A DNA stretch of 64,000 nucleotides from a bacterium (GCA_037131105.1 JBAXRQ010000001.1:701465-765464); one strand, 5' to 3'; shown: positions 1-32,203, counted from the first letter of the stretch. Translations and numbers: made by a program. Notes: a model not told the origin generated them from the letters alone.

Positions 1-822
1 CTTGCCCTCCATGGCGAAAATACCGGTCTCCGTCACATCACCGAAGCGGTTTTTTACCGCCCTCAAAATACGCAGCTGCTGTTGAGGCTCACCCTCAAGA
101 TACAGCACCACGTCCACTAGATGCTCCAAGGTCCGGGGGCCCGCCACCGTACCTTCCTTCGTGATGTGTCCCACCAATACCATGGGGACCCCCAGGCGCT
201 TGGCCAAATGTTGGATACGGACGGCGCACTCTCTGACCTGCACTATGCTTCCTGGCGTAGAGGGAAACTGGGGATCGTACATGGTCTGGATGGAATCTAC
301 GATGACCAGGGCTGGCTTCAGCTGCTCCACCACGGCCGTAATATGGTCGATATTGGTGGCTGCCAGAATCTGCACTTCGGAGGCAGTAGCTCCCAGACGC
401 TCCGCCCGCAGTTTGATCTGCTCGGGAGACTCTTCTCCACTGATATAGAGGATCTGATTCTTTGATACGCTACCCATGCGCTCCACGACCTGTAGAAGAA
501 GGGTGCTTTTTCCTATGCCAGGATCACCCCCCAAGAGAATAACGCTACCGGCCACTATCCCGCCTCCCAGCACCCGATCCAGCTCGGCAAACCCTGATAA
601 GGTCCGGCTTTCAGCTTGACCAGTAATAGCTGCCAAACTAATGGGGGCTGACGCCGTCTCTCCGCTGTAGCCGCCGCCCCGCTCAGCCACTACTGGGGCC
701 ACCTTAAACTCCTTGAGAGTATTCCAGTTATTGCAGTTGTTACAGCGGCCCTGCCACTGGATATATTCCTCGCCGCAGACCTCGCAGACAAAGACAGTGC
801 TGGAACGAGACTTTTTTGGCAT
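1..822 (-). CDS. radA: DNA repair protein RadA/Sms, partial; the C-terminus lies beyond the window start
   Basis: Minus-strand translation from the ATG at 820-822 reads MPKKSRSSTVFVCEVCGEEY...GGDPGIGKSTLLLQV. This gives an N-terminal C4 zinc ribbon and a RecA-like Walker A (GDPGIGKST). The plus-strand ORFs at 121-465 and 161-448 are antisense artefacts. Confidence 0.8.
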   Translation of the reverse strand, partial: MPKKSRSSTVFVCEVCGEEYIQWQGRCNNCNNWNTLKEFKVAPVVAERGGGYSGETASAPISLAAITGQAESRTLSGFAELDRVLGGGIVAGSVILLGGDPGIGKSTLLLQVVERMGSVSKNQILYISGEESPEQIKLRAERLGATASEVQILAATNIDHITAVVEQLKPALVIVDSIQTMYDPQFPSTPGSIVQVRECAVRIQHLAKRLGVPMVLVGHITKEGTVAGPRTLEHLVDVVLYLEGEPQQQLRILRAVKNRFGDVTETGIFAMEGK

Positions 823-27535: not shown

Positions 27536-27651
27536 TCTTGGCGGCGACCTACTTTCCCAGGTCCTTGCGGTCCAAGTATCATCGGCGCTGACGGTCTTCG
27601 CTTCCGTGTTCGGAAAGGGAACGGGCGGTACCCCGTCGCACATACCACCAA
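27536..27651 (-). rRNA. rrf: 5S ribosomal RNA
   Basis: The reverse complement reads CTTGGTGGTATGTGCGACGGGGTACCGCCCGTTCCCTTTCCGAACACGGAAG...GGGAAAGTAGGTCGCCGCCAAG, with canonical 5S helices and conserved CCGAAC/GGGAA motifs. Confidence 0.85.
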
Positions 27652-28190
27652 GACAAAGCACTCTTTACTATCCACACAATTGTGCCGATAGTGTCGGGCG
27701 AATAGCCATCCGGACACCGACAAACCAAGCCGAAGCTCGAATTATCGATGCCGGACAGCATCCACCGCAGATTTTGAAGGCGTTCAGCAAAAGCCAAACA
27801 TTGCCATCACGGCCTGAGCCGTGATCTGGCCATCCCTGCAACCAGGGAAGTTAATTCCAGAAATTACCCGTCACCCTGACGACAGGATGCACCTCTTGCG
27901 AGGTATCTCCTGTCACCATAGGAGTAAAAGTATATGATCAATTAGTACTCCACGGCTGAAACTGTTGCCAGTCTTACACCTAGAGCCTATCAAGGTCGTT
28001 ATCTACAACCGATCTAGAAATCTAATCTTGTGGCCGGCTTCCCGCTTATATGCTTTCAGCGGTTATCCGAACCTAACGTAGCTACCCTGCACTGCCGTTG
28101 GTACGACAACAGGCACACCAGAGGTTAGTCCCCCTCGGTCCTCTCGTACTAGAGGGAGGCCCACTCAAATTTCCGCGCCCACAGAAGATT

Positions 28191-28242
<52 letters not shown>

Positions 28243-28255
28243 TGGCGAACAGCCA

Positions 28256-28286
<31 letters not shown>

Positions 28287-28302
28287 CGACGAGCCGACAT
28301 CG

Positions 28303-28646
28303 TACTATTTTCCAGGATTTCGCCTGGCGCAGACTATATCTTGTTCCTACACTTCGATGGTAGGCCTTCATAAGACACCGTACATAAGTGTCTAAGCCAA
28401 TGATCGTAAGTTTTTGCTGTAGGACTCGGCGTGTTAGCTCTCTAAAAGAAGAAAGCTCTGCTCTTTCGAGCAAGTCGTTACGGGGTCATGCCTCTTGCGA
28501 GACAGACTTCCCACGGTATCGCCCTTGTGCCATAGATAGCGTTTTATCCACGTCTATCTTATGGTCAGTCGGGATTCACCGTTATAAGCCGAATTTTTGG
28601 TATAGGATTACTCCTAAAGCACCCCAATGTTAAATTAGGTGCCAAA
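28303..28646 (-). other. ORF-less ~345-nt intervening sequence in 23S between the equivalents of E. coli U2500 and C2501, in the peptidyl-transferase centre; intron or IVS of undetermined class
   Basis: The flanks GGTTTGGCACCT and CGATGTCGGCTC are contiguous in E. coli 23S. The insert begins AAUUUAACAUUGGGG and ends GGAAAAUAGUA, so there is no canonical terminal G by this alignment. The only ORFs (28189-28473, 28388-28633) run into exon sequence or are antisense. Confidence 0.6.
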
Positions 28647-28679
28647 CCGCGCCGTCGCTGTGGACGCTTGGGCGCGATC

Positions 28680-28710
<31 letters not shown>

Positions 28711-29164
28711 ATGATCGACGCGAATCTCACACTAACGCGTCGGTTCACTACTGCCTACTTTCGTATCTGCTCGGATCGTAGTCCTTACAGTCAAGCTAGC
28801 TTCTGCAGTTGCACTTTGAAGCCTGATTTCCATCCAGGCTAAGCTAACCTTTGCACGCCTCCGTTACCATTTAGGAGGCAACCGTCCCAGTTAAACTACC
28901 CATCAGACACTGTCCTCAGGTCATTACCCTAAGTTAGTATACGTCAAATACAAGAGAGGTATTTCACATTGCGTCTCCACCTCACCCGAAGGCAAGGCTT
29001 CAAAGACTCCCTCTTATGCTACGCATGCATACAACATATACAATGCCAAACTATAGTAAAGCTCCACGGGGTCTTTCCGTCTTTCTGTGGGTAAACGGCA
29101 TCTTTACCGCTATTGGAATTTCACCGATGTCCTCGTTGAGACAGTGTTCAAAACCGTTATGCCA

Positions 29165-29206
<42 letters not shown>

Positions 29207-29925
29207 ATAGGACCGTTCATCAATGTTACGCACAATTGCTTGTGGGCCAGTTATTTCTAACTGACACTGCATGTCGCCATGCAGATCGGACTATATCATC
29301 TCAAGCCTGGCTTGAGTTCGGCGTGTAGTCTCTGAGGATTCCAATCGAAACGAATTTAAGATTTCACCCGAAGTAAACTTGCGTTTGCCTCCGGCATTCA
29401 TGGACTCTCTAGCTTCTAATAACCGCTGCAGTCCCGCTTTGGTTAAATGAGTTTTAGAAAACACCATGTCCGCGATAATGCTGAACACTTCAAAGTCTTT
29501 TCGCTTTTTAGTCTTAAGAGAATACGTTTTAAAGAAGGGAATGATGATATCTCTCAGATCTGTAAAATTACAGACTTCGAAATATCCTACTCCGTCCTTG
29601 CGGAAACGAATTGTCCCACATTCCAAAGTCTCTTGCAGCATCCGAAGGATGTTACCGTCCTTTTGGGATATGTTGAATGACAATCCAACTTTCCACCCTA
29701 TTCCATATGACCGTTTGCGAAAGGAAACATTGAAGCTTCCTTCACCATCAGTAAAACCGACAATATACCAAGCCATATCGGCCGATATCTTTGCAAAACG
29801 CTCAATTGGCCTTTCCTGCTGATTGTCTGCACTTAACGCGTTATCACTGTCATCCATAAATGAATGTTAGTAGCGTAAGATACTCAGATGTTCCAGCAAA
29901 TAGCCAAATTTTATAACTACAATGG
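29207..29925 (-). mobile_element. Group I intron in 23S helix 69, after the equivalent of E. coli U1917, carrying a homing-endonuclease gene
   Basis: The 5' exon ends GGCGGCCGTAACTAT (U) and the 3' exon resumes AACGGTCCTATGGTAGCGAAATTCC. The insert is 719 nt, and its last nucleotide is G (…CAUUGAUG), as expected for a group I intron. Confidence 0.75.
29291..29857 (-). CDS. LAGLIDADG homing endonuclease, single-motif type, encoded inside the 23S intron
   Basis: 188 aa with YIVGFTDGEGSF (the LAGLIDADG motif) near the N-terminus. Its size fits homodimeric I-CreI-like enzymes. It is in the same orientation as the rRNA. Confidence 0.85.
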   Translation of the reverse strand: MDDSDNALSADNQQERPIERFAKISADMAWYIVGFTDGEGSFNVSFRKRSYGIGWKVGLSFNISQKDGNILRMLQETLECGTIRFRKDGVGYFEVCNFTDLRDIIIPFFKTYSLKTKKRKDFEVFSIIADMVFSKTHLTKAGLQRLLEARESMNAGGKRKFTSGEILNSFRLESSETTRRTQARLEMI

Positions 29926-31275
29926 TCAGTTCATAGTTACGGCCGCCATTCACCCGGGCTTCGGATCAAGCCTTGATGTTATCTCAGCTCTCCCCTTAAC
30001 CTTCGGGCATTGGGCAGGCATCACCCCCTATACATCCTCTTGCGAGTTAGCAGGGAGCTAAGTTTTTGCTAAACAGTCGTTTGAACTCTTTTACTGTGGA
30101 TCAGCTTGCGCTGATCAGTCCTTATCCCGAAGTTACGGACGTTGTTTTGCCGAGTTCCTTAACGAGGATTCTATCGATCACCTTAGTCTACTCGACTCAC
30201 CCACCTGCGTCGGTTTGCGGTACGGATCTGTGCCTTAAGTCTCGGACCCTTTTCTAGTCACCTTCGCCCCCACTGTGAACATATCCATAGCACACAGTGA
30301 GCTAAAAAATGCGTCAGGCCGGACATACAACACAAAGTTCAGGAATATTAACCTGATGTCCATCGACTTCCCCCTTCGGGTACGCCTTAGGACCGACTAA
30401 CCCAGGGACGATTAGCGTTGCCCTGGAAACCTTGGGTATGCGGTGGGCAGGTTTTTCACCTGCCAAATTCGTTACTCATGCCAACATTCTCACTTCTGTA
30501 CGCTCCACGTCGGTTTCCACCTTCGCTTCACTGCATACAGAACGCTCCTCTACCGACAGTCATTGACGAATCAACAACTGCCCCGCGTCTTCGGCACAAT
30601 GCTTAGCCCCGTTAAATTTTCGGCGCATGACTTCTTAAATAGATCAGTGAGCTGTTACGCACTCTTTAACTGATGGCTGCTTCTAAGCCAACAGACTGAC
30701 TGTCTTGGAAATCACACAACCTTTTCCACTTAGCATTGATTTAGGGGCCTTAGACGGCGATCTGGGTTCTTTCCCTTTTGACTATGAAGCTTAGCCCCCA
30801 CAGTCTGACTCTGTAACTCAAAGCTGGTCAGAATTCGGAGTTTGGTTGGGTGCAAGAGGCGAACCCCCTACGACCCATTCAGTATCTCTACCTCTGCCAG
30901 AAGCATTACAGGCTATACCTAAATATATTTCGAGGAGAACCAGCTATCTCCCGGTTCGATTGCTATTTTAGCTCTTACCACAAGTCATCCCGCAGCTTTG
31001 CAACGCTGCCGAGTTCGGTCCTCCCGCCCCTTTTACGGAGCGTTCAACCTGCTCATGGCAAGCTCACCGGGTTTCGGGTCTAGTGGCACGGACTACATCG
31101 CCCTATTCGGACTCGCTTTCGCTACGCCTCCAGGATAAACCCCTTAGGCTTGCCCGTACCAGCTAACTCGTTGGCGCATTCTACAAAAGGCACGCCGTCA
31201 CCCGTCCGAAGACAGGCTCCGACCTCTTGGAAGCAAACATGGTTTCAGTACTATTTCACTCCCCTCACCGGGGTG

Positions 31276-31312
<37 letters not shown>

Positions 31313-32203
31313 ATCTTGCAATGTATTTAGCCTTGGAGAGTGATCTCCCCAGATTCCCACCGGATTTCACGTGTCCAGTGGTACTCAGGTACCGTATCAA
31401 GGAGTCTAATGTATTTCGCTTACCGGGCTCTCACCGTCTATGGCCGTCCGTTCCAGGCTCATTCAGCTATACAAAAGATTTCTTACTCCTCGGGATATCC
31501 CCATACGGCCCTACAACCCCGCTATGATAAATCATGCGGTTTGGGCTGTTCCGCGTTCGCTCGCCACTACTAACGGAATCTCGTTGATTTCTATTCCTCG
31601 TGGTACTTAGATGTTTCAGTTCCCACGCTTACCATCACTACGGATTCGCACCGTAATGTACACCTTAAAGGTGTGGGTTACCCCATTCGGAAATGTCCGG
31701 ATCAAAGCTCTGTTGCCAGCTCCCCGAACCTTATCGCAGGCTCATACGTCCTTCATCGGCATTGCAAGTCAAGGCATCCACCATGTGCTCGTAACGTACC
31801 TTTCTCCTTGAAACATGTCATTGCTGACACATTTCAGGTGACGGGTAATTTCTAGAATAAACTAGGAATCACTCCGCTACTCTCCACACTTTGCAAAGTG
31901 TGGGGCATGAGTAATTTCTGGAAACACATGCATCTCTGCATGCACCCCCGACATTGCTGCCAGAGGATTTTGCCGTTTTACCTTCAAAATCTGATTGTCA
32001 AAGAAATCGATACTTCCGAACTTGCGTCCGGACAACCAGCTCAGAGTGACTCTGAAACGGCATGTCCGCCTGCAAACAAATAAAAAAGAGCGACGAGGTA
32101 GTTGGTATGTACGTACGTTCGCTCGCGAGAGTGGGCCGTTGCTCACTCGATGTCATGATAGCGCACCTGAACGGTGCCTAGAGCATTTCCTGCGTGCCTA
32201 CTT

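Follow-up and report, generated by a model that had tools for sequence, protein, structure and literature searches.

A likely mobile L1917 group I intron encoding a LAGLIDADG endonuclease in the 23S rRNA gene of an uncultured, probably CPR bacterium

The stretch of DNA analysed here (hereafter, the window) comprises 64 kb of a contig from a metagenome assembly. The Rfam scan of the window identifies a complete gene for bacterial large subunit (LSU) rRNA, with a score of 2338.8 bits, and a gene for 5S rRNA (Table 1), and the genes that flank this rRNA locus are ordinary housekeeping genes. No 16S rRNA or tRNA genes were found within the window by the Rfam scan and a tRNA search; because the 23S-5S pair comes without either, the rRNA operon is split. 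The exons of the 23S gene show 87% identity to those of a metagenome-assembled genome (MAG) labelled ‘Patescibacteria group bacterium’ (L004) and 83% identity to those of a Berkelbacteria MAG, compared with about 70-73% for all other loci compared, and the host is probably an uncultured bacterium of the CPR. Compared with the E. coli gene, this 23S gene is expanded by 51 nt after position 272 (window 31489-31539) and lacks positions 1411-1436, 1469-1479, 1519-1561, 1746-1769 and 2788-2808; these deletions recall the loss of rRNA regions mentioned for CPR bacteria (PMC11270868).

In the alignment to the LSU covariance model, the gene is interrupted by a single large insert, flanked by ...CGUAACUAU and ACGGUCCUA. 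Exact string matches on the reverse complement place the final base of the 5' exon GGCGGCCGTAACTAT at 29933 and the first base of the 3' exon AACGGTCCTA at 29217, and these boundaries are unambiguous because the conserved exon sequence no longer matches after a shift of one base either way. The original prediction was correct on the exon-insert-exon junction, including the U at the end of the 5' exon and the G at the end of the insert, but its coordinates (29207-29925) and length (719 nt) were off by 7-11 nt and 4 nt, respectively, and both the gene and the insert lie on the minus strand, as follows from the Rfam placement and the exact exon matches. When the gene is aligned pairwise to an annotated 2903-nt copy of the E. 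coli 23S gene, the 715-nt insertion falls after base 1916, which corresponds to U1917 in the standard 2904-nt numbering; the helix 69 site reads GGCCG-U1911-AAC-U1915-A-U1917/AACGGUCC. The insert thus separates U1917 from A1918 (E. coli numbering) in the helix 69 loop of 23S rRNA, the site that had been predicted and on which the LSU model alignment and the E. coli 23S alignment agree.

Three public assemblies, made independently from different data sets (L001-L003), contain the 715-nt insert with an identical protein, and dozens of genomes carry homologues at the same site, so the insert is not a chance pattern. A metagenome contig, exon flanks that are nearly universal and related introns in many co-occurring taxa are the setting in which an assembler could have joined another organism's intron to this 23S gene via the conserved exon. 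However, the intron-plus-exon arrangement is identical in the three separate assemblies, and the nearest 23S relative (L004) also has the nearest endonuclease gene (72%), at the same site; a chimera deserves next to no credence, and, given the three assemblies, an artefact of this kind was rejected.

Table 1. Coordinates of the rRNA genes, introns, ribozyme elements and ORF in the 64 kb window. Subtraction of an intron position from 29933 gives the window coordinate.
Feature	Intron positions	Window positions	Strand	Sequence and remarks
LSU (23S) rRNA gene		27922-31806	minus	complete
5S rRNA gene		27536-27652		
Second group I intron		28303-28636	minus	334 nt, ORF-less
L1917 group I intron		29218-29932	minus	715 nt, G first and G last; exact exon matches
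P1	13-20	29913-29920	minus	guide GUAGUUAU with 5' exon GUAACUAU (29940-29933, exon -8 to -1)
P10	6-12	29921-29927	minus	GACCAUU with 3' exon AACGGUC (29217-29211, exon +1 to +7)
P3	25-30 / 611-616	29903-29908 / 29322-29317	minus	UUUGGC with GCCGAA
P4-P5-P5a-P5b arm with return strands		29812-29899	minus	contains the classical Q element AAUCAGCAGG
P4	34-39 / 112-117			
P5	45-48 / 104-107			
P5a	54-60 / 94-101			
P5b	67-72 / 77-82			
P6	124-132 / 584-592	29801-29809 / 29349-29341	minus	CCAAUUGAG with UUCGAUUGG
Catalytic core, 3' half		29289-29337	minus	J6/7 with R element, P7, P3', P8, J8/7 with S element GAUAUAGUCC
P7	603-607 / 640-644			GACUA with UAGUC
P8 hairpin	617-623 / 627-633			
3' domain		29218-29284	minus	P9, P9a, P9b, conserved GUAACA block, terminal G 715 (29218)
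P9	649-655 / 660-666			GCGA loop
P9a	670-675 / 680-685			GAAA loop
P9b	689-693 / 698-702			GCAA loop
Endonuclease ORF (188 aa)		29857-29291	minus	sole long ORF in the rRNA sense; contains YIVGFTDGEGSF
Alternative start ATG (Met28)		29774-29776	minus	inside the P6 loop; protein would be 161 aa

The secondary structure of the insert was derived comparatively from a MAFFT alignment of 68 related L1917 introns, to which the following pairing values refer. The splice-site helices have the features expected of group I introns: P1 is 98.3% paired, with the U.G pair at the 5' splice site in all 68 introns, six of the seven P10 positions pair in the window intron, with 75-96% conservation of the pairs, and the intron ends with G in 65 of the 68 cases, the window intron included. 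Among the core helices, P3 is 99.5% paired, with compensatory changes at five of the six pairs, P7 is 100% paired (two compensatory pairs) and P8 is 89% paired, with all seven pairs covarying; in the P5 arm, P5, P5a and P4 are 100%, 89% and 84% paired, respectively, again with compensatory changes, and P9 is 100% paired, with six of the seven pairs covarying. The R element CAGAGACUACA and the S element GAUAUAGUCC that flank P7 match the Rfam consensus and are nearly invariant in the 68 introns; we take the G603-C644 pair and the bulged A602 to be the equivalent of the G-site of the Tetrahymena intron. All three hairpin loops of the 3' domain are GNRA, and P2 is absent.

Four helices, P6, P5b, P9a and P9b, are out of register in the MAFFT alignment, so that their apparent pairing of 36-63% reflects the alignment. 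When P6 was re-tested by a script anchored on GGAAAG and (A/G)AATCC, it was found in the same register in every one of the 68 introns, with differing sequences and a mean of 6.5 contiguous base pairs (9 in the window intron); the 451-nt loop between its strands holds the core of the endonuclease. The support for P5b, P9a and P9b comes from the window intron's own fold and from partial covariation. For the 68 introns together, 85.0% of the cells are paired, compared with 31.5-39.5% when the partners are slid by one to three columns; the covariation score is 0.389, compared with 0.146 in shuffles, and was reached in none of the 500 shuffles; double changes are found at 51 of the 80 pairs. The minimum-free-energy fold of a mini-intron without the P6 loop recovers P4, P5, P5a, P5b, P7, P8, P9, P9a and P9b, the P4-P6 arm folded alone forms P6 as well, and the 3' segment folded alone forms the three hairpins P9, P9a and P9b. 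The P1-P9 folding proposed as a check on the original prediction therefore yields a group I core (P3-P7) with covariation support, and the group I secondary structure is complete and evolutionarily conserved, with the correct splice-site features.

The 3' domain contains one further conserved block, (G)UAACA, at intron positions 705-710 (window 29223-29228), 5-10 nt upstream of the 3' splice site. It is conserved in most of the L1917 introns (alignment columns about 1059-1066) and repeats the GUAAC of the 5' exon. No covarying partner of this block was found in the 68-intron alignment; pairing of GUAACA with an extension of the guide sequence, GUUAC, was considered and dropped because the variants GGAACA and GCAACA do not covary.

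In the Rfam scan proposed earlier, there is a significant match to Intron_gpI (RF00028) at 29267-29455, with E=1.8e-6 over 851 nt and E=9.7e-6 over 4.6 kb, but its score of 32.9 bits falls below the curated gathering threshold of 50 bits, and in gathering mode there is no Intron_gpI match in the window, only the LSU and 5S rRNAs being returned. In the Intron_gpI alignment, the R element, P7, P3', P8, the S element, P7' and P9 are placed with high posterior probability, whereas the 5' half (P3-P6) is aligned incorrectly. Both the misalignment and the sub-threshold score are due to the ORF in the P6 loop together with the lack of P2. The low score is thus explained and does not count against the group I structure.

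The same structural evidence bears on the possibility that the insert is an intervening sequence of the RNase III type, which would be excised without ligation and leave the 23S rRNA fragmented. The covarying core, P1, P10 and the terminal G would have no reason to be conserved in a spacer that is not spliced. Moreover, helix 69 is part of a universally conserved inter-subunit bridge, which a break in its loop would disrupt. Intervening sequences do exist in bacterial 23S genes, those of CPR and Coxiella included, but the known sites named in these two papers are elsewhere and less conserved, namely helix 45 in Coxiella and 23IS2 and 23IS4 in CPR (PMC11270868, PMC4990558). Although splicing of the window intron is a prediction from its sequence features, this alternative is extremely improbable and was rejected on the strength of the covarying group I core with its splice features.

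The same 23S gene contains a second, ORF-less group I intron on the minus strand (Table 1), which scores 40.4 bits (E=4.5e-9) with Intron_gpI, also below the 50-bit threshold. It is inserted after about U2500 (E. coli numbering), in the peptidyl-transferase region, and its guide GGGGUGC pairs with GCACCU of the exon. On the assumption that the exon junction is GGCACCU/CGAUGUCGG, like that of E. coli, this intron ends with ...AAUAGUA, that is, its last base is A and not the canonical G. The L2500 inserts of L030 (Berkelbacteria) and L039 (Gemmataceae) also end with an A (...GGUA), and others end with G.

The ORF in the L1917 intron, a single-motif LAGLIDADG protein of 188 aa in the rRNA sense, is as originally predicted. 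The protein passes the Pfam test, with 79.2 bits against the cut-off of 23.1 for LAGLIDADG_1 (PF00961, E=5e-22) and a single domain at residues 32-127. Among the sequences in the PDB, it matches each half of the monomeric enzymes I-PanMI, I-OnuI and I-SmaMI with E about 1e-39, and the single-domain enzymes I-TnaI (5e-16) and I-Vdi141I (4e-10) more weakly. In the alignment of 30 homologues, the motif GFTDGEGSFN is invariant or nearly so, with D37, G38, E39 and G40 invariant; by analogy, from the alignment with the solved relatives, E39 would be the catalytic, metal-binding acidic residue. The AlphaFold model, built on the 30 homologues, has a pLDDT of 86, with low confidence only at residues 1-20 and 171-188, and the predicted core has the alpha-beta-beta-alpha-beta-beta-alpha topology (H26-39, E40-48, E55-65, H68-78, E82-85, E91-95, H98-111). 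All matches in the listed Foldseek top 50 are LAGLIDADG enzymes, I-SmaMI among them, with probability 1.00; the TM-scores normalised on the target are 0.81 for I-TnaI (PDB 5gkk) and 0.78 for I-Vdi141I (PDB 3e54).

The protein is under purifying selection, as indicated by the dN/dS values of 0.117 and 0.133 in the core (residues 30-168) against two relatives, at saturating dS. The pS value against the closest relative is 0.24-0.26 in the N-terminal 27 and the C-terminal 20 codons, compared with 0.55 in the core; low values in the terminal codons are what constraint at the RNA level would give. Thus, the endonuclease gene is intact, belongs to the right family and evolves under purifying selection at the protein level.

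The protein search yielded 2019 homologues, and a scan of one genome per species identified 491 loci that encode a relative. Among the best 80 of these 491 loci, 67 have exact CCGTAACTAT/.../AACGGTCC junctions, with inserts of 676-830 nt; in the others, the alignment to E. coli 23S is broken at 1912-1916, or starts only downstream of the site, where the contig ends. The breaks at 1912-1916 are often due to further introns at 1931 or 1951. In the best 80 of the 491 loci examined, then, relatives of the endonuclease are found almost exclusively at the 1917 site. The 23S genes of several relatives contain tandem introns at 1917, 1931 and 1951, with tiny exons between them. The introns of three MAGs, of Bipolaricaulota, Acetothermia and Fraserbacteria (L034, L041, L062), end with ...GACA/AACGG, with a terminal A instead of G. 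On the contig of another relative (P0004), a protein of the LAGLIDADG_2 family is encoded about 2.6 kb downstream of the LAGLIDADG_1 gene (L086, 6186-6546) and might mark another rRNA insert.

The phyla in which the endonuclease family is found include Omnitrophota, Acidobacteriota, Bacteroidota, Gemmatimonadota, Nitrospirota, Planctomycetota, Myxococcota and Proteobacteria (Thiomargarita and others). The view that such introns are typical of CPR and a few other lineages agrees with the published reports (PMC11270868, PMC1995217, PMC4990558), but the genome scan shows a broader spread: the range of the L1917 endonuclease family extends beyond CPR, Thermotoga, Coxiella and cyanobacteria and is far greater than the older literature implied.

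The ORF and the ribozyme overlap extensively. The longest reading frame starts in P5b, runs through P4' and P6 into the P6 loop, where the endonuclease core is encoded, and continues through P6', P7, P3' and P8, and its stop codon UAG (29293-29291) consists of the first three bases of P7'. Because part of the ORF is ribozyme core, nucleotides of the Q, R and S elements serve two roles: the Q element encodes the invariant peptide ADNQQER (in P4') and the R element encodes ESSETTR (J6/7-P7). As a gauge of whether the N-terminal extension is translated, the frame of the Q element was compared with that of the LAGLIDADG motif; the two agree in 50 of the 68 introns, a count that the tblastn ranking by the 188-aa query tilts in favour of in-frame cases and that is therefore no guide to translation. 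Translation of the Q, R and S elements and the folded state of the ribozyme should exclude one another. It is conceivable that the overlap is a selected coupling device, whereby an endonuclease-maturase and its intron would gate or time the maturation of the large subunit, in an organism with one rRNA operon, where the precursor could not be translated while its helix 69 intron is folded; we consider this highly unlikely.

The start codon is uncertain, with Met1 (29857) and Met28 (29776) as the candidates. In favour of Met1, the helix alpha-1 is predicted to begin at residue 26, that is, before Met28. In favour of Met28, an ATG in the P6 loop is present in nearly all relatives and is their usual start, and the Shine-Dalgarno-like GGAGG, where present, precedes that ATG. 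No Shine-Dalgarno sequence was found at either of the two candidate ATG codons.

Taken together, these observations are best explained, with a probability of roughly 0.9, by a mobile group I intron that belongs to the L1917 lineage, is IC1-like and lacks P2, occupies the loop of helix 69 and has a single-domain LAGLIDADG gene within the loop of P6. The element is intact and, judging from its sequence, probably active. The proposed mechanism follows the known chemistry of group I splicing and of LAGLIDADG enzymes, the required sequence features of which are present here. Once transcribed, the intron would fold, with the 5' exon held in P1 by the guide GUAGUUAU; an external guanosine, for which P7 is the binding site, would attack after U1917; P10 would align the 3' exon, and the freed 3'-OH of U1917 would attack after the terminal G, so that helix 69 is religated precisely and the intron is released. 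The endonuclease would be translated from the precursor or from the excised intron, dimerise and cut intron-less 23S genes around position 1917 (intron-less site GAATGGCGGCCGTAACTATAACGGTCCTATGGTAGCG), and repair from the intron-containing copy would spread the element by homing.

That the enzyme acts as a homodimer is suggested by its single domain and, by analogy, by the biochemistry of I-ShaI (PMC11270868). The DNA target is weakly palindromic, with six of the 11 positions symmetric around U1915, and the site therefore lends little support to the homodimer argument. Because CPR genomes usually have a single copy of the rRNA genes (PMC11270868), homing within a cell would have no target, and the spread must be between cells.

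The single rRNA copy also bears on the alternative that the protein persists chiefly or solely as a splicing helper (maturase) of the helix 69 intron and is not an active homing endonuclease. Such a role would make sense where there is one rRNA operon and correct splicing is essential, and homing endonucleases may also have maturase activity (PMC11270868). The strong purifying selection (dN/dS of about 0.12) points in the same direction, given that one rRNA copy is typical of the lineage (PMC11270868), and the presence of the closest endonuclease gene in the closest 23S relative suggests vertical retention. However, the DGEG of the catalytic motif is invariant, whereas maturase-only proteins need not keep the catalytic residues; the occupation of one site across many unrelated phyla is the signature of active homing and horizontal transfer; and the sister enzyme from CPR is an active nuclease (PMC11270868). 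An exclusive or predominant maturase function is thus unlikely, and the maturase and endonuclease roles are not mutually exclusive.

The closest described counterparts of this homing intron are two L1917 group I introns that encode single-motif LAGLIDADG proteins, one of 743 nt in Synechococcus sp. C9 (181-aa protein) and one of 774 nt in Thermotoga subterranea (168-aa protein) (Haugen et al. 2007, PMC1995217). The window intron shares with these the site, the size class, the IC1-like core, the complex P5 arm and the lack of P2, as well as the location of the ORF in P6, with its continuation through P7, P3 and P8, as judged against the published description (PMC1995217) of the type sequences (DQ421380, AJ556793). 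The differences are that the longest ORF in the window starts upstream, in P5b, passes through P4' and stops in P7' rather than P9, and that the host is an uncultured CPR-like bacterium.

Within the CPR, 82% of the 23S genes carry insertions, and position 1917 (‘23IS6’) is among the sites that predominantly encode LAGLIDADG_1 proteins (Tsurumaki et al. 2024, PMC11270868). I-ShaI, the sister enzyme encoded at the adjacent 23IS7, was shown to dimerise and to cut its target (PMC11270868), and rRNA insertions of the CPR type are removed from transcripts, according to Brown et al. as cited in PMC11270868. The window element matches the 23IS6 class in host group, rRNA position, protein family and single-domain architecture; the CPR survey scored its inserts as group I-like with the same Rfam model as used here, presented the 1917 class without secondary structure or covariation, and characterised I-ShaI, which comes from 23IS7 and not from 1917 (PMC11270868).

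More distant are the single-domain enzymes I-TnaI (PDB 5gkk) and I-Vdi141I (PDB 3e54), which have the single-domain fold in common with the window protein at 30-36% identity in the Foldseek alignments. These enzymes recognise different target sites, and the window protein is closer by sequence to the halves of the monomeric I-OnuI, I-PanMI and I-SmaMI than to either of them. I-Vdi141I itself comes from an archaeal rRNA intron. In Coxiella burnetii, the single rRNA operon contains Cbu_L1917, a spliced group I intron at 23S position 1917, in the account of Raghavan and Hicks as cited in PMC4990558. It resembles the window intron in its 23S position and in being a group I intron in a bacterium. 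Cbu_L1917 presumably has neither an endonuclease gene nor a terminal G, in which case it differs from the window intron, which has both.

The window element is a routine new member of a described, widespread class of mobile elements. With the intron annotated, the 23S gene is not mistaken for a truncated gene, nor the ORF for a free-standing hypothetical protein, and the coordinates of the mature rRNA for phylogeny are correct; beyond annotation, it matters little. The by-products of the analysis are a covariation-supported structure for the L1917 class, from 68 introns, and a set of about 490 loci across many phyla. Both could help to improve the Rfam group I model, which at the curated threshold misses the ORF-bearing L1917 introns.
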